From a virus: a DNA stretch of 43,953 nt. Of the stretch, positions 1 through 43,953 are shown piece after piece. The position numbers and the translations under genes were made by a program. A model generated the notes under the pieces. It did no database searches and had not been told where the DNA came from. It saw nothing but the letters and a program-made list of their open reading frames with translations. Each line of letters opens with the position of its first letter. The first letter of the stretch is position 1. Location of the stretch: the UHGV virus genome UHGV-0199997; one strand, written 5' to 3'.

Positions 1-417
1 ATGAAACTTTCTGATTTTTATTTCGAAGAGAAAGCACTGGTAGGCAAGAAGATGCCGATTACGCTGCCGAATGGTGAAGACTCAGGAGAGTGGCTTAACG
101 TTGTAAATACGGATGCGGATGCCGCCGTTAAAGCCGGGCGTGCTTTCATTATTGCGTACCGCCGTGGGTTGGCGCGTTTCGAAGAACTGGAAAAAGCCGC
201 CAAAGAAACCGGCGACTATACTGAATATAACCTGGCGGTTAACGAACTGGCGGAAGACCTCAACCGGCAACTCGCGGCAGAAGTCGTAAACGGCTGGAGC
301 TTTGACGAGCCATTCTCTAAGGAAGCGTTTAACAAATTGCTCGATCAGTTCAAAGCATTAGGCACACAGGTAGCGGCGTTTCATAACGCTGAACGTAAAG
401 CATTACAGGAAAAGTAG
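1..417 (+). CDS. tail assembly chaperone (gpG-like)
   Basis: 138-aa ORF directly upstream of the tape measure gene; acidic helical protein; the window end supplies an RBS (AAAGGA 43941-43946) if the sequence is circular. Confidence 0.55.
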   Translation: MKLSDFYFEEKALVGKKMPITLPNGEDSGEWLNVVNTDADAAVKAGRAFIIAYRRGLARFEELEKAAKETGDYTEYNLAVNELAEDLNRQLAAEVVNGWSFDEPFSKEAFNKLLDQFKALGTQVAAFHNAERKALQEK

Positions 418-782
418 ACGCGCTGTACAGGTTCGCCACCTACGAGTTCGTTGATAAGCATAAAATCAGAGAGTTTGATTCTATAGCTGACGGACACGAA
501 CAGGCGCTTATCGCGATGGGTGTAATCGATAAGAAAAAACGTGCAGCGCGACGGGGTGGGCCGGAATGCCCGCCCCTTTTTATATCCACCTTTGAGACGT
601 ATTGCGACATTAAGTTTACGCGACACGTGCGCGAGGACGCTGTAGTATTGTTTGCAAGAGAATCCGTTACGTGGCAAGACCTGAAAGCCTATCTCGATGT
701 TACGCAAAAGCAGCTTAGCCTGTTCGAGATAGACATTATCATGGGCTTAGAAGCAATCTTTGAAGGTAGAAATCATGGCTGA
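399..782 (+). CDS. tail assembly chaperone T-extension (putative G-T fusion via -1 frameshift)
   Basis: -1 frame opens at 399 right after a TAA (396-398), is protein-like through 782 and overlaps the tape measure start; heptamer G GAA AAG at 408-414 resembles the lambda G/GT slip site G GGA AAG. Confidence 0.4.
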   Translation, partial: SITGKVDALYRFATYEFVDKHKIREFDSIADGHEQALIAMGVIDKKKRAARRGGPECPPLFISTFETYCDIKFTRHVREDAVVLFARESVTWQDLKAYLDVTQKQLSLFEIDIIMGLEAIFEGRNHG

Positions 783-3048
783 TACCGCTAGTTTGATAGT
801 ACGAGTATCATCGACCGGCGTCGATAAAACCACATCACAACTGAACGGGCTTACTAAGGCGGCGGGGGCCGCAGCAGCCGCCGTTGTCAGTCTGGAAACC
901 GCTAAGCAGGTGTTCAGCGCGCTGGTGGACTCTCAGCGCAACTTCGACAAGCTAAATTCCGGACTCATCACGATGACCGGGAGCGCGGAGAACGCGGCTA
1001 AGGCTTTCAGCGTCCTGCAACAATTCGCAAAAGAAACCCCATACGGGCTTAACCAGGCGGTGGAAGGCTTTACTAAACTTGTGGCCCTGGGCCTGAACCC
1101 CAGCAAAGAAGCGTTAATCTCCTATGGCAACACCGCCGCGGCTATGGGTAAAGACCTTAATCAAATGATTGAGGCTGTGGCGGACGCCAGTACCTTTGAG
1201 TTTGAGCGCCTAAAAGAGTTCGGCATCAAGTCCTCCCAACAGGCAGATACAGTGTCGTTCACGTTCCGCGGCGTAACGACTACTGTTAAAAAGAACTCCG
1301 AAGAGATTCAGAAATACCTTCTGAACATCGGCAACACGGATTTCGCCGGGGCGATGGAGACGCGCTCTAAGACGTTAGACGGCCAGTTATCGAGCCTCGC
1401 TGACTCTTTCGACGGCCTTGTTCTTGCGGTAGCGCAATCCGGTTTTGGCGACGCGGTAGGTGAACAAGCAGCAACAGCGGAAGATGCCATCACGGCGCTC
1501 ACCGACGCCATTGCGTCTAATGAGATAGCAGCCACGCTGCAGGATTGGGTGACACTGTTCAATGAGTCGTTCAAGTTTATCTCCGACGCCTTGAACGACC
1601 TGGCATTTGACACCGAGGACAAATCCGCGGATATGTCCGACTCGCTGGGTACCATACCTGACGCTATCCGTGAGTGGTTGCCCGACATCCAGCAGACATT
1701 CCACGAGGTTATCGCGTGGTTCCAGCGCATTGACGATTATGCCGTAGCGCTAGGGCAGACCCTTGCCGACGTGTTTGACCCGAGCAAAACGGCAGCGCTC
1801 ACATTTAAAAACCTGACTGCAGAAGCCGACGCCGCATACGCCGCCAGCATAAAACGCGCAGAGGCAGAATCACAGGCCATTACCAACAGGTCTAAGCAGC
1901 GTAAGAAAGAAATTGAGGAGCAACGCAAGCAGTATAATGAGCGCAAGAAGCAAGAGATTGACTTAGCCAGCCTTGTTAATAACAAGGGTGGAACTGGTGG
2001 GGCGGGAAACACCAACGACAAAGACGCGAAAGCTGCCGCTAAGAAAGCGGAGCAATTACGTAAACAGGCGCAGGATTACCTCGACACTTTGGCTCGTCAG
2101 AACAACGACGAGTTAAAGGCTATTGACGCTCAGGAACAGCAGAAACTGGCTAAGGCAAAAGAGTTCTACGGCCAGGGCGCGTTGTCTCTGAAAGAATACG
2201 AACAAGCTAAAACGGCTATCGTCCTTGAAGCAGGGCAAAAACGGCAAGATGAACTGGATAAACGCCAGAAAGAAGCCCAGGAAAAGCAGCAGAAAGGCGA
2301 CGACTTCATGGCCCAGATTATGGGCCAGAACGCCACTGAGCTTGAGCTTCTCGATATCCAGGAACAGCAGAAACTGGCTGTCGCCGATAAATACCGCGAA
2401 CAGGGGCTGATTAAAGAGGAACAGTATCAGGCGGCACTTAACGCTATCAATGAGCAGTATGCTACGAAGCGCGCCGACGCAACGGCAACCGCCTTTGGTA
2501 ACATGGCCTCAAATATCGGGTCTGCGTTGGGCGAGGCCTCTGGTGCGTATAAGGCATTCGCTATCGTACAGGCCACTATCGCCACGTACACCGCAGCTAT
2601 TGAGGCGTACAAGTCAACGGCTGCTATCCCTGTAGTTGGCCCGTTCCTGGCCCCTGTAGCCGCTGCCGCTGCCGTTGGGGCAGGTATGGCGCAGATTTCA
2701 GCTATCAGATCCGCACGTGAACAGGGTGGTCAGTTGTCCGCGGGGCAGGCTTCCACCATCACGGAACGCGATAAACCTGAGGTTATCATGCCGGCGGGTG
2801 CATCGCGTGTGCGCACCGCGCAGCAGATGAAAGAAATTATGGGGCAAAACGGGTCTTCTTCCGGCCCGTCTAATGTTACTATCGTAAACAACACGAGTTC
2901 TCAAATCGGCAAAGTATCCACCGAACAAGATGATGAAGGCCGTTTGCGAATCATCATTGAAGAACAGGTTGCCGCGTCTTTGCAGAACAGCAACAGTAAG
3001 ATTAGCAAGGCCCGCAAGGCCACAAGAAATGCGCCGGGGTTCAAATAA
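775..3048 (+). CDS. tail tape measure protein
   Basis: Roughly 760-aa helical protein rich in A/Q/K/E repeats with a hydrophobic Gly/Ala segment near the C-terminus, in the expected position after the chaperone; ATG 775 follows RBS GAAGG (762-766). The ORF track opens at TTG 760. Confidence 0.85.
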   Translation: MADTASLIVRVSSTGVDKTTSQLNGLTKAAGAAAAAVVSLETAKQVFSALVDSQRNFDKLNSGLITMTGSAENAAKAFSVLQQFAKETPYGLNQAVEGFTKLVALGLNPSKEALISYGNTAAAMGKDLNQMIEAVADASTFEFERLKEFGIKSSQQADTVSFTFRGVTTTVKKNSEEIQKYLLNIGNTDFAGAMETRSKTLDGQLSSLADSFDGLVLAVAQSGFGDAVGEQAATAEDAITALTDAIASNEIAATLQDWVTLFNESFKFISDALNDLAFDTEDKSADMSDSLGTIPDAIREWLPDIQQTFHEVIAWFQRIDDYAVALGQTLADVFDPSKTAALTFKNLTAEADAAYAASIKRAEAESQAITNRSKQRKKEIEEQRKQYNERKKQEIDLASLVNNKGGTGGAGNTNDKDAKAAAKKAEQLRKQAQDYLDTLARQNNDELKAIDAQEQQKLAKAKEFYGQGALSLKEYEQAKTAIVLEAGQKRQDELDKRQKEAQEKQQKGDDFMAQIMGQNATELELLDIQEQQKLAVADKYREQGLIKEEQYQAALNAINEQYATKRADATATAFGNMASNIGSALGEASGAYKAFAIVQATIATYTAAIEAYKSTAAIPVVGPFLAPVAAAAAVGAGMAQISAIRSAREQGGQLSAGQASTITERDKPEVIMPAGASRVRTAQQMKEIMGQNGSSSGPSNVTIVNNTSSQIGKVSTEQDDEGRLRIIIEEQVAASLQNSNSKISKARKATRNAPGFK

Positions 3049-4060: not shown

Positions 4061-4422
4061 ATATTAACGACTACACGGGCATACCTTACGACTTTCGCAA
4101 ACGCAATTGCTGGCATCACGTGCGCATTGTCCGCGCGGACGCCGGGTTAGACACCCCGGCGTTCGACGTCACAAGCCCTACGGCAATTAACGAAGCGTTT
4201 GACGAAGGTCATCGCAACACAAAGGGGCTTACGAAGATTGATAAGCCTGAAAACTTCTGTGCGGTGCTTATGGGGTATCGCCGTGGTGGTCGTATCGTGT
4301 GGCACGCAGGAGTTTACTTCGACGGGATGGTGAGTCATTGCGAGCTTGCATCCCGTCAGGTACGGCTTGACAGGCTGGCGGATCTCAGAGACACGTACAC
4401 GGAGATTGAATTTTGGCGATAA
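4057..4422 (+). CDS. tail assembly protein K-like, NlpC/P60-type peptidase domain
   Basis: ATGA overlap start; Cys in NCWHH and His in WHAGVYFDGMVSHCE are consistent with an NlpC/P60 catalytic pair as in the lambda gpK C-terminal domain. Confidence 0.55.
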   Translation: MNINDYTGIPYDFRKRNCWHHVRIVRADAGLDTPAFDVTSPTAINEAFDEGHRNTKGLTKIDKPENFCAVLMGYRRGGRIVWHAGVYFDGMVSHCELASRQVRLDRLADLRDTYTEIEFWR

Positions 4423-6968
4423 TCCTGCACTACACGCGAAACGCCGACGGCGCTTTCGACCGTACAAAACACGTCGGGATGCCGATGGAGTTTGTCGTTA
4501 ACCGTATTCCCGACGGCGTGCCTGCGCGAGTCTACCTCGGTGAGATTGGTGATGATACCGACGTAACCGACGACTTCGATGCGCTTAAAGACGAAGACGC
4601 GGTATACCACATTATTGAGGGTGCGGGTAGCGGGGCGCTTGGTGCCGTTAGTAAGGTGTTCGGTTTTATCCTTAAGCCAATCGCCAAGTTGTTCGGCCTG
4701 AACATGTCCGCTAACGCCAACTACACGGCGACTAACAATCAGACAACGTCACCGAACAACAGCCTTACCGACCGCTCAAACAAACCACGCCCTTACGAGC
4801 GCTCTTATGACATCTGCGGTACTGTGCAGACAATCCCTAACGACCTTATGCAGACGTATAAGGCGTTCAACTCAACTGGTGCTTTGCTGGAGTATTCGTA
4901 CTATGACGCGGGACGCGGGCATCTGCATATTGAGGCGGATGGCGTCACAGAAGGCGACACCCTTATAAGCGACATCACGGGTTCTTCTGTTGCCGTGTAC
5001 GCGCCGTATACTTCCCCGAACAACACCGCATCTCCCCAACTACAAATCGGCGACGTCATTGACCAGAAACTCTATGTGACATACTCCAACGACGACGTTG
5101 ACGGTATTGTACTGAAAGCACCAAACGACATCGGAGCTAACCCAAGCGCCGACGGCACCGCTAAACGTATTTCAAACACCGGCTACATTTATGACCCGTC
5201 AGGCGACTCTGCTTTTTCTGAGTTTCTTAGCGTCGGTGATGTCGCGGTGCTGAGCAACTTTGACGTTGCTGATGTCACTAACCTGAACGGCTCGTTTGAG
5301 GTTTTATACGTTGACGACTTCGAAGTAAGATTAGCCGTAAACGGTGCGTCTAACTGGACGGCGTTGACCAGCGGACAGACGTACACCCTAACAGAGCGTT
5401 CAGATACGTTTATTGGCCCGAGCAACACCTATGACGTATCCCTGACAGACTGGTATTACATGGTGCGCGGAGAGGTTGACCGTGTGCTCGCTAACGTAGC
5501 CGGGCAGAACGGCCTATACAAATACGACGGCGGCTATAACCGCACCAGCGTAACCGTAGAACTCCAGTACCAGATGATTGACTCTCAGCGCAACCCGTTG
5601 AGTGATATTTACACGGTACAGGCTACAATTACAGGCAACAATACGGATTACGTCGGTACGTCTATCTACGGACAGTTGCCGACAGCATCTCGTTTCCGCG
5701 CCCGTATGCGCCGTGTAACTAATTTTGACAAGGGCTACGACGGAACGGTAAGTGACGAGATAACCTTCATCAACCTGTACGGGCAGTCGCTGGACACAAC
5801 CCCACACTACGGCAACCGAACTACCGTGCATTGCGCACGTAAACAGACGCCGCGCGCCGCCAGTATCGACAACCCGGAACTACGCATGATTGCTACCGAG
5901 ATGTGCTACAAATACCTCGGCAATGGGGTGTTCGATACGGTAATGACTCCGAACACTCAGGCAGTGCAGTCGCTAATCCGACTGGCCCGAGACCCAGCGG
6001 TTGGTAATCTGAAACTGACAACGGTAAACATGGATAAGTTGCTTGCTGTGCAGGAAGAAATTGAGTCGTATTTCGGAAGTGAATTAGCGGGGCAATTCTG
6101 CTACACGTTCGACGACTACGACACCACGATGCAGGACATTGTTCAGACCATAGCGGAAGCCGTTTTCTGTACCGCATACCGTAAAGGCGCGGATATTATG
6201 TTGCGGTTTGACCGTCCGGTTGCGGGGCCTGAAATGGTGTTCACCCACCGCAGCAAAACTACCGGTACGGAGAAATGGACCCGCACGTTCAACGATTCTA
6301 CGACCTACGATAGCCTGTCGTTCTCGTACATCGACCCGGATACGAATGTACAGGAAACGATTTATATCCCGGAAGAACTCGGTGCAAATACGGAGGAGTA
6401 CGAATCGAAGGGCGTGCGCAACTACCAACAGGCATATTGGCTGGCGTGGCGTCGCTATCAGCGCAACACGTTAAGTAAAGTTGTCGTAGAGTTCGAAGCT
6501 ACGGAAGAAGGCGCTCTCGCTACCCCAGGCGGCGTAATTAGTGTAGTTAAAGGTTCACGTATTGCACCACAGGACGGCTATATTGTTGCCGTTAATGGGC
6601 TTACACTTACGTTATCCCAGCCTGTTACGTTTACTCCTGGCGATGACCACTCCATCATTCTTAAGAAGCGCGATGGCTCGGTGCAGAGTATCTCCGTTAT
6701 CAAAGGAAGCCACGACCGCGAAGTGATTATGCTCTCTGCGCCGGAGGAGGCAATCTACACAGGGAATAGTGCGCTAAAAACTGAGTTTTCATTCGGCAAC
6801 GAAGCAAGGCATAATGCTCAGAAGATAGTTGTTTCTTCAATCGACCCGGGCGACGACCGCACGGTCAAGATTACGGGCTACAACTATGATGACGGATTCT
6901 ATAAATACGACGGCGTCGCGCCATACGGCAGCGGTTTCTCCGACGGATTCAGCAATGGTTTTAATTAA
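4413..6968 (+). CDS. tail tip protein (gpI-like N-terminus fused to gpJ-like host-specificity region)
   Basis: 851-aa ORF; N-terminal ~100 aa (AVYHIIEGAGSGALGAVSKVFGFIL) resembles lambda gpI, the rest is a large beta-rich tip protein. The track start is TTG 4413; ATG 4476 or 4482 are alternatives. Confidence 0.6.
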   Translation: MAIILHYTRNADGAFDRTKHVGMPMEFVVNRIPDGVPARVYLGEIGDDTDVTDDFDALKDEDAVYHIIEGAGSGALGAVSKVFGFILKPIAKLFGLNMSANANYTATNNQTTSPNNSLTDRSNKPRPYERSYDICGTVQTIPNDLMQTYKAFNSTGALLEYSYYDAGRGHLHIEADGVTEGDTLISDITGSSVAVYAPYTSPNNTASPQLQIGDVIDQKLYVTYSNDDVDGIVLKAPNDIGANPSADGTAKRISNTGYIYDPSGDSAFSEFLSVGDVAVLSNFDVADVTNLNGSFEVLYVDDFEVRLAVNGASNWTALTSGQTYTLTERSDTFIGPSNTYDVSLTDWYYMVRGEVDRVLANVAGQNGLYKYDGGYNRTSVTVELQYQMIDSQRNPLSDIYTVQATITGNNTDYVGTSIYGQLPTASRFRARMRRVTNFDKGYDGTVSDEITFINLYGQSLDTTPHYGNRTTVHCARKQTPRAASIDNPELRMIATEMCYKYLGNGVFDTVMTPNTQAVQSLIRLARDPAVGNLKLTTVNMDKLLAVQEEIESYFGSELAGQFCYTFDDYDTTMQDIVQTIAEAVFCTAYRKGADIMLRFDRPVAGPEMVFTHRSKTTGTEKWTRTFNDSTTYDSLSFSYIDPDTNVQETIYIPEELGANTEEYESKGVRNYQQAYWLAWRRYQRNTLSKVVVEFEATEEGALATPGGVISVVKGSRIAPQDGYIVAVNGLTLTLSQPVTFTPGDDHSIILKKRDGSVQSISVIKGSHDREVIMLSAPEEAIYTGNSALKTEFSFGNEARHNAQKIVVSSIDPGDDRTVKITGYNYDDGFYKYDGVAPYGSGFSDGFSNGFN

Positions 6969-21325: not shown

Positions 21326-21470
21326 TTGACTTTTACTAAGAAATATGCTAAGCTCGTCCTGAGCTTGTGAAGTATGAACAAGCGACCGCGGTGCGCGGCA
21401 GGCGAAACGAGCACGTCTCGACGTGTGGAGTGAGTCTCGCTGGCGCATTCGGAAGGGCCATAGTCTATTG
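21326..21470 (+). promoter_or_regulatory. promoter (TTGACT-N17-TAAGCT) plus conserved leader element, copy 1
   Basis: -35 at 21326-21331 and -10 at 21349-21354; 34-nt block identical to copy 2 at 21358-21391 containing a perfect hairpin GCTTGT-N9-ACAAGC; second conserved block at 21448-21470. Confidence 0.5.
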
Positions 21471-21573: not shown

Positions 21574-21623
21574 CTCGCTACCCTATTACACGAAAGAATC
21601 ACAACGGCAACGTAACTATTCTC

Positions 21624-21659
21624 TTGCACACCCCAATATAATAGGATACTATTCACTTA
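21624..21659 (+). promoter_or_regulatory. conserved promoter element (TTGCAC-N17-TACTATTCACTTA)
   Basis: One of at least five near-identical ~36-bp elements, each 25-40 bp upstream of an RBS and start codon; this one precedes the gene at 21687. Confidence 0.5.
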
Positions 21660-23143: not shown

Positions 23144-23150
23144 AATTTAC

Positions 23151-23186
23151 TTGCACGCTAAGATAGAATAGGCTACTATTCACTTA
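23151..23186 (+). promoter_or_regulatory. conserved promoter element (TTGCAC-N17-TACTATTCACTTA)
   Basis: Same element family as 21624-21659; precedes RBS GAGAGGAGAG and ATG 23211. Confidence 0.5.
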
Positions 23187-33233: not shown

Positions 33234-33694
33234 TGATGGGCTTTTTCAAAGTAACTGATGTACCGTCGCGTCGCGTAGTCCAGTACGCCCGCGTGTCTGG
33301 CTCCGGCGAGAACGTAGTATTTATTGAGGATGAAAGTGTACTAGGTACACCAGTAGACGATATGCCGTTTGCGGATAAGACAGGCATCGCACTTCCTGCG
33401 GCAGGTATGCTTTATGAGATTCCGTATCTGGCTGATGCGGGTGATGTGTATTTCTCCGAGCAACCGAAAGATGCGGAACTGGTAGACGGCAGCGCAACCC
33501 TCACTGTCGAAGTTAAAGCAGGTGAAGCGCCGTATACACTGACCTGGTACAAAGACGGTAAGGAAGTGGTAAACGCCCCGGAAGAGGCCTTGTCTCTGAC
33601 GGTCAATGCAGTTGGTGAATACTTCGTTAAGGTTACTGATGCCGATGGTGTAGATGCGGTAAGTAAAGCGGCGAAGGTTACTAAGCCAGAATGA
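33233..33694 (+). CDS. Ig-like domain protein (putative virion decoration)
   Basis: C-terminal Ig-like segment TLTVEVKAGEAPYTLTWYKDGKEV...GEYFVKVTDADG. Confidence 0.5.
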   Translation: MMGFFKVTDVPSRRVVQYARVSGSGENVVFIEDESVLGTPVDDMPFADKTGIALPAAGMLYEIPYLADAGDVYFSEQPKDAELVDGSATLTVEVKAGEAPYTLTWYKDGKEVVNAPEEALSLTVNAVGEYFVKVTDADGVDAVSKAAKVTKPE

Positions 33695-34366: not shown

Positions 34367-34509
34367 TTGACTTTTCACTAAAAATATGCTAAGCTCCACC
34401 TGAGCTTGTGAAGTATGAACAAGCGACCGCGGCGCGGGCAGGTAACGGAGCGGGACGTAAGTCCTGAGTGTAGTTACGCTGACGCGTTCGGAAGGGCCAT
34501 ACTCTATTG
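34367..34509 (+). promoter_or_regulatory. promoter (TTGACT-N17-TAAGCT) plus conserved leader element, copy 2
   Basis: -35 at 34367-34372 and -10 at 34390-34395; conserved blocks at 34399-34432 and 34487-34509 are identical or near-identical to copy 1. Confidence 0.5.
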
Positions 34510-41362: not shown

Positions 41363-41388
41363 AAGGCCCCTTTCGGGGCCTTTTTCTT
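41363..41388. terminator. bidirectional rho-independent terminator
   Basis: AAGGCCCC-TTTC-GGGGCCTT followed by TTTTTCTT; U tracts on both strands; shared with the convergent minus-strand cassette. Confidence 0.75.
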
Positions 41389-41941
41389 ACAAACCTAATT
41401 TTAAAGCAATGTCTATAACGTTCGATTTAACGTCACCTGGTATGATGTAGGTGTCGTAATCTTTTACACCGCTAACATCATACAGATAACCACGGCTGTC
41501 CCCCTCAAACGTATAGCCGTCGCGATGGAGGCGAACGATTCGCACGTCATGACCCGCGGCGACGATAGGGGCTACTTCGCTGGCGAACCCGCCGTCGGAC
41601 ACTACAAAAACTTCGTCGCCGTCTGGCAAGTTTTCAGCAAGATACTTACCGAAATAATCACTACCAAGTACCGGTTTAATGAATTGCTCAGATATAGCAA
41701 TCATGAACTGACGCCGCGACAAGCCATTAAGGAAGCCTTCTGACTTTTCTTTCCGTGCCCGGTCGTCGTAGCCGTCGATAAACTCGTGGTAAGCATCCGG
41801 GCCTAATGCCGCCAGAGCGATATTGAACATTGGATTCTTGAAACTGGTGATTCCCTTCGCAAAGCCCATTTCTACCAGCGCCATAGCAAGTGTGTCTTTC
41901 CCGCAACCCGCCGGGCCATTAAGAATAATTACCTTAGCCAT
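41387..41941 (-). CDS. P-loop nucleotide/polynucleotide kinase (dNMP kinase / Pnk kinase-like)
   Basis: Walker A ILNGPAGCGKDT; the C-terminal pattern resembles T4 dNMP kinase; its start overlaps the stop of the HAD phosphatase gene. Confidence 0.6.
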   Translation of the reverse strand: MAKVIILNGPAGCGKDTLAMALVEMGFAKGITSFKNPMFNIALAALGPDAYHEFIDGYDDRARKEKSEGFLNGLSRRQFMIAISEQFIKPVLGSDYFGKYLAENLPDGDEVFVVSDGGFASEVAPIVAAGHDVRIVRLHRDGYTFEGDSRGYLYDVSGVKDYDTYIIPGDVKSNVIDIALKLGL

Positions 41942-42429
41942 TATTTATCGCTCCCGTGTGGTTTTAAGTGTGTAGAGTTCCCGTTACAGTCGTATTCAGT
42001 AACCGCGTGAGTGGTTATACCGAGTCCGCGGAAATGCTTTATTACCGCGGGAGAGTCGTCGAATGCGCACAAGATTCTTTCCAGCCCGATAGCACGTAAC
42101 ACCTCTTCTTTAATTACGATGTCTTTTCTGTTGTCGTGTTTGCTGCGCATTATCAGCGTGTCAAACTTAACGTTATTTTCTCGCAACCATTTACGAGTCC
42201 CATCCTCAGCGTCGTCGCTTCGACCGGTAAGGATGATTACGGTCATCCCGGTATGCCACAGCGTGTTGCACAAGTGAATGTTGTCATATATCGGCGCATC
42301 ATCTTTGCACGCCATGTTAAATGGCCTCCAAGCCCATGTTTCGCCGTAGTTATCTTTCGGCAGCAGGTGCAAACGATGTGTACCATCTGCTAATGTCCCG
42401 TCTAAATCGAAAATTACAATATCTTTCAT
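41941..42429 (-). CDS. HAD-family phosphatase resembling the T4 polynucleotide kinase 3'-phosphatase domain
   Basis: HAD motif I FDLDGTL, motif II ILTGR, and the segments DNRKDIVIKEEV and FDDSPAVIKHF align with recalled T4 Pnk phosphatase-domain motifs. Confidence 0.7.
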   Translation of the reverse strand: MKDIVIFDLDGTLADGTHRLHLLPKDNYGETWAWRPFNMACKDDAPIYDNIHLCNTLWHTGMTVIILTGRSDDAEDGTRKWLRENNVKFDTLIMRSKHDNRKDIVIKEEVLRAIGLERILCAFDDSPAVIKHFRGLGITTHAVTEYDCNGNSTHLKPHGSDK

Positions 42430-43556
42430 CCCAGCATCTCCGGTGAAATAGTTAAACGCGCAACCTCGCCATATTCGGCGCTATATGTAATTACGTTTGC
42501 ACTGCGGCCTGACATCCATCCGCCGCGAGAGGCGTAGGCGTCTTTAGCCGCCAGGGTGCGGTGTTGCTCGACAATCATGTTACGACTTTCTACAATCTTC
42601 TGGTGGTGCAGGTGGCCCACGTGAGCGTAGCTGTAAACACTCTCGCCGAACGCTTTACGGAACTTGGCAATCATAACAGGTTCGATAGCGTCGAATCGCG
42701 CCTTATGGCCGTGATGAAAGAACAGAGTCGTTTTGCCGTGTCGCACCATCTTGTAAACATCCGGCGACGTATCGACGAACACACGCGGCTCGTTGTCGTA
42801 CAGCGTGCTAAACATCTCAGCCAACCAAATCATTCCGCTTTCGTCGTGGTTCCCTTGCACGATAAGCAAGCGAACATTTTTATGCTTAACAAGGGCCATA
42901 TCAACAACACGGCGGACCATACGAATCATGTAGCGGACAAGTTTCTGATAACGGGTGTCAGCATCAAGAACATTACCACTCGCCGGTGTAACGGCAACCA
43001 GACTATCGAAGTGCGCAAGGTCCCCAAGCAGGTTAATAACCCCTGTTCCCGCATCCGGTGCTTTCTGAAACGCGGCATCGAACCAGCGGGAGAACAGGTC
43101 TTCTGCAATCTTCATATCCCAGTCGTCGCCGCTTTCATCGGCCCAGGCCAGCATACCGAGATGGAAATCAGATACCGTGTAAAGATTGAGTAGTTTATCG
43201 TCGCGTTTAGCCCGAACGGCTTTAACAGGAGCAACGGGGGTAATCTCCGACTTCATCCCTTCGATTACGGCTTTCATCAACTCTACCTGACGTTCGGCAT
43301 CGGTGTCGGTCTTAACCCATTGCAGCTTAGTGTTGCCGAACTCGTCCACCAGTGACGACGTGCCTTTAATCTTGTAGCCGTCTGGTACAAGATGACTGAC
43401 GTCGCGGCCGTGCCCTACGCCTTTCTTAGCCAGCTTCGCTTTACGGATACGAATAACGCGATCTGAGATGCCATATTTACGGGCTATATCGATATTCCTC
43501 AATCCGGCGTTCAATTCTTCCTGTAACTGTTCGTCGGTTATTTTCTTCCGGGCCAT
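42426..43556 (-). CDS. HTH domain fused to a calcineurin-like metallophosphoesterase
   Basis: N-terminal HTH (NIDIARKYGISDRVIRIRKAKL); phosphoesterase motifs DFHLG, GDLAHFD, GNHDE, HHGH, GHLHH. Confidence 0.65.
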   Translation of the reverse strand: MARKKITDEQLQEELNAGLRNIDIARKYGISDRVIRIRKAKLAKKGVGHGRDVSHLVPDGYKIKGTSSLVDEFGNTKLQWVKTDTDAERQVELMKAVIEGMKSEITPVAPVKAVRAKRDDKLLNLYTVSDFHLGMLAWADESGDDWDMKIAEDLFSRWFDAAFQKAPDAGTGVINLLGDLAHFDSLVAVTPASGNVLDADTRYQKLVRYMIRMVRRVVDMALVKHKNVRLLIVQGNHDESGMIWLAEMFSTLYDNEPRVFVDTSPDVYKMVRHGKTTLFFHHGHKARFDAIEPVMIAKFRKAFGESVYSYAHVGHLHHQKIVESRNMIVEQHRTLAAKDAYASRGGWMSGRSANVITYSAEYGEVARLTISPEMLG

Positions 43557-43594: not shown

Positions 43595-43786
43595 TCACTT
43601 CTCGTTAACATTCGAGTTGCACGCCCAGATTAAAATAAACACCCACGGCAGCAGAACCCATCCGAGAAACAGGTTAGCCATGAATATCGCTAACTTCGCT
43701 TTATGGTTACGGAAGTATGCAACCAGGAAAGGTGCGAAATAGGCGAGCAGTGCAAACAGAATTAAGGAAACTGGTAAACTTGACAT
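43595..43786 (-). CDS. superinfection-immunity-like small membrane protein
   Basis: YFAPFLVAYFRNHKAKLAIFMANLFLGWVLLPWVFILIW matches the recalled Imm-type pattern (YF.P.IIAF.R.H...AIF.LNL.LGWT..GW..ALIW); ATG 43786 with RBS GAAGGGG; first gene of the minus-strand cassette. Confidence 0.55.
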   Translation of the reverse strand: MSSLPVSLILFALLAYFAPFLVAYFRNHKAKLAIFMANLFLGWVLLPWVFILIWACNSNVNEK

Positions 43787-43809
43787 TTTAAACCCCTTCA
43801 TTGTTGGTG

Positions 43810-43845
43810 TAAGTGAATAGTACCCTATTATATTGGGGCGCGCAA
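43810..43845 (-). promoter_or_regulatory. conserved promoter element (TTGCGC-N17-TACTATTCACTTA), minus orientation
   Basis: Member of the element family; drives the four-gene minus-strand cassette. Confidence 0.5.
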
Positions 43846-43953
43846 GTAGTGTGCTAGAATAAGTTTGCGCCTAGTGTCGCACACGAAAAGCGGGTGGTTC
43901 CCGTCTGGCGCATTTATCGTTAACCTGTAACCTCTTAACCAAAGGATTAAAGA

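Follow-up and report, generated by a model that had tools for sequence, protein, structure and literature searches.

The closest described counterpart of the gene considered here is imm of bacteriophage T4, a myovirus. T4 Imm was reported to bind the tape measure protein gp29, and the substitutions R33A and W50A weaken exclusion (2026 preprint, bioRxiv 10.64898/2026.03.06.709160). As a parallel, the same preprint cites HK97 gp15, a siphovirus protein of small size that sits in the inner membrane and prevents tape-measure-dependent DNA entry. Here, we describe how an imm-like gene in a siphovirus genome, its protein product, and its locus compare with these systems.

The DNA analyzed, referred to as the window, is a stretch of 43,953 nucleotides (UHGV virus genome UHGV-0199997). 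From its matches to phage records, we regard it as the complete genome of a Kagunavirus-type (Guernseyvirinae) E. coli phage that is identical to no deposited record; over its first 25 kb, the highest identity is 91%, at 79% coverage. In nucleotide comparisons, ~290 phage records match the last 1.5 kb, the best at ~92-93% identity, i.e., Escherichia phages EM1, fTaEco01, K1ind1-3, and K1G. The window has been linearized at the tail assembly chaperone gene, the ATG of which takes position 1. The imm-like gene belongs to a cassette that is antisense to the tail-gene module in which it lies, between the major tail protein gene and the chaperone/tape-measure genes, and consists of the following elements:

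43595..43786, minus strand: imm-like coding sequence, 63 aa, with PF14373 at residues 16-56 (open reading frame, Pfam/PHROG, and alignment to T4 Imm)
43793..43799, minus strand: Shine-Dalgarno sequence GAAGGGG, 6 nt before the imm ATG (read from the sequence)
42426..43556, minus strand: second gene, 376 aa, N-terminal HTH-like region and metallophosphoesterase domain (PHROG 704, 'DNA repair exonuclease')
41941..42429, minus strand: third gene, 162-aa HAD phosphatase of the polynucleotide kinase-phosphatase type (PF25109)
41387..41941, minus strand: fourth gene, 184-aa P-loop kinase, dNMP kinase-like (PHROG 139)
41363..41382, both strands: bidirectional intrinsic terminator with an 8-bp stem containing 6 G-C pairs

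As the original prediction had it, imm is the first gene of the cassette and opens a four-gene minus-strand operon. The terminator closes this cassette and the upstream major-tail-protein gene alike. Near-identical GGCCCC-loop-GGGGCC hairpin terminators stand at module boundaries (8979, 15092, 31878, 33697, and 41362), with one weaker representative at 33571. Among relatives, the cassette varies toward its 3' end (41387-42429): a 76-aa ORF replaces the phosphatase and kinase genes in Bas73 (L004:4184-4414) and Bas74 (L003:12045-12275), an HNH endonuclease gene and a 76-aa ORF follow the exonuclease gene in Jerseyviruses (L005/L006 ~4074-4814), and PhiSTP2 has a single gene at the imm position, the rest of the cassette being absent.

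The interval of the original prediction, which named no strand, coincides exactly with a minus-strand reading frame that extends from an ATG at 43786-43784 to a TGA stop at 43597-43595 and translates to MSSLPVSLILFALLAYFAPFLVAYFRNHKAKLAIFMANLFLGWVLLPWVFILIWACNSNVNEK. A mechanical ORF list also allows a 68-aa version from an ATG at 43801, and some records, e.g., that of Bas74, annotate this version all the same. We prefer the 63-aa start, given that the alternative at 43801 has no Shine-Dalgarno sequence, is a mere 9 nt away from the predicted transcript start, and is not shared by the homologues of SHAK7693-type Kagunavirus and Jerseyvirus. The reading frame is real and under strong purifying selection: comparison with K1G gives 10 synonymous changes and one non-synonymous change, comparison with Bas74 gives eight and none, respectively, and dN/dS is 0.13-0.18 against the divergent Kagunavirus SHAK7693 and three Jerseyviruses (those for which it was computable). 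Residues ~1-15 vary among relatives while the C-terminal 48 are nearly fixed. Of the records compared, that of vB_EcoM_SHAK7693 (OR594180.1, L008) carries the taxonomy line Autographiviridae, Kayfunavirus; its locus has the Kagunavirus gene order and 82% identity to the window over the imm region, and the record is likely mislabelled.

Pfam assigns the protein to PF14373 (Imm_superinfect) with 48.6 bits, where the gathering score is 27.9 (E 7.5e-13), the alignment covering model positions 2-42 of 42 and protein residues 16-56, and PHROG assigns it to family 1039, 'immunity to superinfection' (E 3e-22). T4 Imm, the sequence of which was taken from NC_000866 for all comparisons, scores 58.2 bits on the same Pfam model. 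BLASTP aligned the two proteins over 54 ungapped residues with 26% identity (E 8e-10), and hhalign of a profile of 105 relatives against T4 Imm gave a probability of 98.2% (E 5.3e-14). The residues that are near-invariant in the family, described by the signature YF-P...A..R.H...I...N...GW....W.....W, are all present (Y16, F17, P19, A23, R26, H28, I34, N38, G42, W43, W48, and W54), and in the pairwise BLASTP alignment R26 and W43 align with R33 and W50 of T4 Imm. A clade-specific change converts the family's GWTxxGW to GWVLLPW, which counts somewhat against an unchanged T4-like function. Judged by these alignments, the 63-aa protein is a true relative of T4 Imm and a member of PF14373; the profile search, whose failure the original prediction had counted among the refuting outcomes, finds Imm-family homology well above the gathering score, and the proposed Imm-type character is borne out by the pairwise and profile comparisons with T4 Imm as well.

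Hydropathy identifies two hydrophobic segments, residues ~4-25 and 31-55, with the basic loop RNHKAK (R26-K31) between them. An AlphaFold2 model based on the 105-sequence alignment is confident (pLDDT 96.5) and has helices at residues 4-16, 18-25, 31-41, and 45-55; in the model, these four helices would amount to two kinked hydrophobic segments with breaks at P19 and G42-W43. The earlier description of a 63-aa, two-helix membrane-type protein is supported by both analyses. All named top matches to the model in BFVD are annotated as Imm-family proteins (probability 1.0, TM-scores 0.71-0.74), and its structural neighbours among viral models are Imm-family proteins of Aeromonas, Serratia, Pseudomonas, and Mycobacterium phages; among solved structures in the PDB, none was comparable by sequence or by fold. 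The hydrophobicity of the protein and its basic loop suggest that it is located in the inner membrane, where the second segment may be either spanning or re-entrant.

Upstream of imm lies a repeated sequence motif with the layout of a promoter, which occurs in the window as follows:

43846-43810, minus strand: 37-nt motif CTTGCGCGCCCCAATATAATAGGGTACTATTCACTTA, putative promoter of the cassette (from motif copies and the alignment of relatives)
43845-43840, minus strand: -35 TTGCGC, separated from the -10 by a 17-nt spacer
43822-43817, minus strand: -10 TACTAT, conserved at 17-nt spacing
21623-21659 and 23150-23186, plus strand: other full copies of the motif
32146-32110 and 34301-34265, minus strand: other full copies of the motif
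15822, 17917, and 17962, plus strand: three partial copies without a -35, inside the minus-strand replication module

The original prediction placed the gene directly behind a conserved promoter, and the motif agrees with this: its 19-nt core is present in 8 copies in the window versus 0.01 expected by chance, and it ends 24 nt upstream of the imm ATG, with a predicted transcript start near 43810 and, hence, a 5' UTR of ~24 nt. Every full copy is upstream of a start codon preceded by a Shine-Dalgarno sequence, at a distance of 23-32 nt from motif end to start, and none of the genes behind the five full copies is structural; they comprise a rightward small-gene cluster adjoining a divergent HTH regulator gene, a 61-aa ORF, a gene for a 173-aa DNA-metabolism protein, and the imm cassette. 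Three of the full copies would drive inverted islands within the late structural module. Because TTGCRx and TAyTAT are kept with 17-nt spacing in Jerseyvirus (TTGCAT, 17 nt, TATTAT) and PhiSTP2 (TTGCGC, 17 nt, TATATT), where the spacer sequences differ, these elements are likely the -35 and -10. A TATAAT inside the motif was rejected as the -10 as it is only 7 nt from TTGCRC and is unconserved in Jerseyvirus and PhiSTP2. A generic sigma-70 scan missed the motif because its -35 matches at only 3 of 6 positions; the candidate imm promoter returned by the scan (CTTACA, 17 nt, TAAAAT) was discarded as its -10 overlaps the start codon. Within the window, the motif family reads TTGCRC, 17 nt, TACTAT, then TCACTTA, and the spacer is kept and holds a short palindrome (AATAG, 4 nt, CTATT). 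Conservation of this spacer points to an operator at which a phage regulator would bind.

Other non-coding sequences in the window also show conservation. The imm-chaperone intergenic region is 167 bp long and contains blocks (43850-43953, especially 43888-43912) that are conserved across genera beyond the flanking genes; these blocks, GCGCCAGrCGGGAACCACCCGCTTTTC, which includes a GCGGG/CCCGC stem, and GTGCGAC..TAG.CGC, occur nowhere else in the window. Folding energies of the 167 nt were no better than those of shuffled sequences on either strand (z -0.01 and -0.63), and Rfam gave no match in the whole window at gathering thresholds. Because the terminator at 41363-41382 stops plus-strand transcripts, it is plausible that the blocks are a late promoter or an activator site for the chaperone/tape-measure genes. 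A non-coding element of ~145-185 nt that starts with TTGACT is present in two copies with 87-89% identity (21326-21470 and 34367-34509), each close to one copy of the conserved promoter; it may represent a leader or a small RNA. In relatives, short ORFs (30-37 aa) upstream of imm bear the annotation 'hypothetical protein' (L003:13675-13788, Bas74_0024; L004:2533-2625; L008:334-426). Bas74_0024 overlaps the promoter motif, the ORF list of the window has no counterpart, and these ORFs are probably annotation artefacts.

The imm promoter is common to the early-type small-gene cluster and the DNA-metabolism islands, and the promoter and operon anatomy would fit early or middle transcription. It is important to note that in the K1B4 time course, the only Kagunavirus transcriptome, the imm homologue falls in a class peaking at 110 min or later, a class that also holds DNA polymerase and methylases and was defined with coarse sampling (PMC12645636). 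Early expression, as originally predicted, is what we infer from the anatomy of the locus; the K1B4 transcriptome contradicts it weakly and is too coarse in design to settle the matter.

Our working hypothesis, which we consider probable on balance, is that the protein is a membrane-located Imm-family protein that blocks the entry of DNA from related phages by acting on the incoming tape measure protein. Specifically, host RNA polymerase would use a phage promoter with a sigma-70 layout to transcribe imm as the first gene of a four-gene accessory operon; once inserted in the infected cell's inner membrane, the protein would bind to the tape measure protein brought in by a later-adsorbing virion, as T4 Imm is reported to do with gp29. 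Formation of the inner-membrane channel would be blocked and the superinfecting DNA kept out of the cytoplasm. The excluded virions would be those of the same phage or of related Guernseyvirinae; the original prediction suggested that unrelated phages be tested as well, which is probably too broad because the T4 precedent is specific to the tape measure protein as its partner. Literature searches found no functional test of any Guernseyvirinae Imm homologue. The features of the phage's own tape measure protein that bear on this hypothesis are the following:

760-3048: coding sequence of the tape measure protein
2557..2709, plus strand: hydrophobic segment of this protein, ~aa 600-650 (hydropathy; putative link to Imm)

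This segment is the only strongly hydrophobic one in the protein and is nearly invariant across the subfamily, and, by analogy with T4 gp29, it may represent the class of target that Imm would meet on an incoming virion. Phages carrying Imm have at least four N-terminal types of tape measure protein, so there is no Imm-specific co-variation. The idea that Imm is matched to the tape measure protein of its own phage is, with Imm occurring alongside several such types, unsupported.

The position of imm between the promoter and the exonuclease gene is polymorphic across Guernseyvirinae. This slot holds Imm, a protein of 108-109 aa, or a protein of 120 aa, the following being equivalent to window positions 43595-43786:

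L004:2665-2991: slot alternative in Bas73
L005:2672-3001: slot alternative in ZC10
L019:2768-3130: slot alternative in PhiSTP2

The 108-109-aa allele is present in 99 records, including Bas71, Bas73, Bas76, phiSD1, Jersey, ZC10, and L223. The 108-aa protein has a predicted signal peptide and two cysteines and belongs to PHROG 14165 (function unassigned); Pfam has no match for it, its sequence is not similar to that of T4 Sp, and its all-helical model gave no informative structural match. The slot of PhiSTP2 encodes a 120-aa secreted-type protein, also with two cysteines and of a similar build; it was rejected as a member of the 108-aa family as the two have no significant relation.

Kagunavirus and Jerseyvirus each include carriers of Imm and carriers of the 108-aa allele. 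Promoter, intergenic region, and exonuclease gene group by genus, and the divergence between alleles starts right at the predicted transcript start. By contrast, similarity in the tail chaperone and in the first ~500 residues of the tape measure protein goes with the slot allele and not with the genus: in this region, Bas73 and ZC10, which belong to different genera and share the 108-aa allele, are 73-91% identical, whereas phages of the same genus with different alleles are 8-35% identical. The C-terminal third of the tape measure protein follows genus. The tape measure protein is a mosaic with at least five very divergent N-terminal types that cross genera (window 1-417 and 760-2260 versus L016, L017, and L018). 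One of these types was found in 100 records, the 108-aa protein in 99; 15 accessions are among those listed for both, none of which is among those listed for Imm, and among the accessions listed the two co-occur without visible exception. This co-variation is a lead on the 108-aa protein and the slot rather than Imm-specific evidence, and close physical linkage would be enough to account for it. We speculate, in the knowledge that this is doubtful, that the slot may be a polymorphic exclusion locus at which non-homologous envelope proteins are interchanged, each matched to its own type of tape measure protein. If so, the slot would define mutual-exclusion groups among otherwise near-identical phages, and the secreted alternatives would be new exclusion factors directed at the tape measure protein.

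We also considered that the protein might belong to a broad family of membrane proteins with a function unrelated to the exclusion of kin, i.e., heterotypic defence or a general role in membrane or host physiology, the label being merely inherited. The family is indeed very large: when 1.84 billion cluster representatives were searched exhaustively, 5354 PF14373-like relatives of 58-332 aa were returned at E<=0.001, most of which are unnamed metagenomic proteins and some of which are fused to other domains. Neither PADLOC nor NCBIfam gave a relevant match to any cassette protein or to the 108-aa alternative; the sole match was far below threshold and concerned the 376-aa protein. Because the fold is so widespread and, to our knowledge, only T4 Imm has been characterized, the family name is a hypothesis on function and not a demonstration of it. 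Against an inherited label, however, the closest relatives found for the clade were all on Guernseyvirinae-type phage contigs, the residues that matter in T4 are retained, and other small envelope-targeted proteins can take the place of Imm in the slot beside the chaperone/tape-measure genes. We judge this explanation unlikely. In a scan of bacterial genomes with the single protein, the sole 'bacterial' match was on a Jerseyvirus-like contig in a Bacteroidota assembly (NZ_JACVEL010000023.1, L015; a 13-kb scaffold of Taishania pollutisoli). Its genes are arranged as in Jerseyvirus (tape measure, chaperone, imm, exonuclease, HNH), and only two residues distinguish its Imm, of 59 aa, from the one in Salmonella phage sidste; the scaffold is probably phage contamination of the assembly.

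It is quite unlikely, in our estimate, that the main role of the protein is not to block DNA entry but to protect the envelope from secondary adsorption or to act in lysis timing (lysis from without, latent period). T4 imm mutants are less resistant to lysis from without and show premature collapse of lysis inhibition, and Imm is said to resemble a holin (review PMC6832632), as does the window protein in its small two-segment membrane architecture; moreover, the K1B4 transcriptome paper puts the homologue among late/lysis functions (PMC12645636). On the other hand, the holin, endolysin, and spanin genes are located elsewhere, judging by the Bas74 annotation, and imm is co-transcribed with genes for nucleic-acid enzymes and no lysis genes. 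The lysis phenotypes in T4 can follow secondarily from a block to penetration, and an entry block is favoured by the direct complex of T4 Imm with the tape measure protein (bioRxiv 10.64898/2026.03.06.709160). That the reading frame arose by chance or is a decaying remnant without a product has a vanishingly small probability: it is short (63 codons), unannotated in RP180, and 'hypothetical' or 'oxidoreductase' in some records, but the substitution pattern (dN/dS 0-0.18 overall, where computable) refutes this, and the conserved Shine-Dalgarno sequence and start, the Pfam E-value of 7.5e-13, and the 366 phage records with the protein by tblastn, a minority of which are distant hits in other phage groups, also argue against it.

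The assignment to the Imm family is correct but already known. Identical proteins are deposited for Escherichia phage 26 and vB_Ec_DUEC01, the latter under the name 'superinfection immunity protein', and K1G gp23, Bas74_0023, and many Jerseyvirus genes have the same name in GenBank. Similarity of the gene to T4 imm is mentioned in PMC6763661, PMC9409062, PMC10783031, and PMC5582158, in one of which the gene distinguishes phage P from phages G and L. A re-derived annotation adds little by itself, and gains some value from the 2026 report on T4 Imm and the tape measure protein; the polymorphic slot and the link to the tape measure protein are the only part that might be new. Kagunaviruses are small and easily engineered, and those in the BASEL collection (Bas70-76) carry Imm or an unrelated secreted protein at one site; therefore, they would offer a convenient siphovirus system for asking if action on the tape measure protein is a general property of the Imm family. 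The same phages could help to explain how it is decided which phages are excluded by which others, a point of relevance to phage cocktails.

Among known systems, the Guernseyvirinae orthologues at the same locus are 68-100% identical to the window protein and essentially do not differ from it (K1G gp23, YP_009168803.1; Bas74_0023; vB_Ec_DUEC01; Salmonella phage sidste gp35; SeF1 Gp_027; and Schulenberg QEG06814). T4 Sp (spackle), T5 Llp, and phi80/N15 Cor are periplasmic or lipoprotein exclusion factors and are analogous in kind to the secreted slot alternatives. The likeness to HK97 gp15 lies in the proposed action alone, and gp15 differs in being a moron expressed from a prophage. T4 Imm (NP_049660, 83 aa) is homologous. 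The window protein is 20 residues shorter, being without ~7 N-terminal residues and the charged C-terminal tail, and has GWVLLPW where T4 Imm has NWSIIGW; it is encoded by a siphovirus, where its gene heads an operon inserted in the tail module beside the chaperone/tape-measure genes, and we know of no sequence similarity between the siphovirus tape measure protein and T4 gp29. The two proteins nevertheless share the core of two hydrophobic segments and the P/R/GW/W/W signature, including the equivalents of R33 and W50, and both are small membrane-type proteins encoded by virulent phages.
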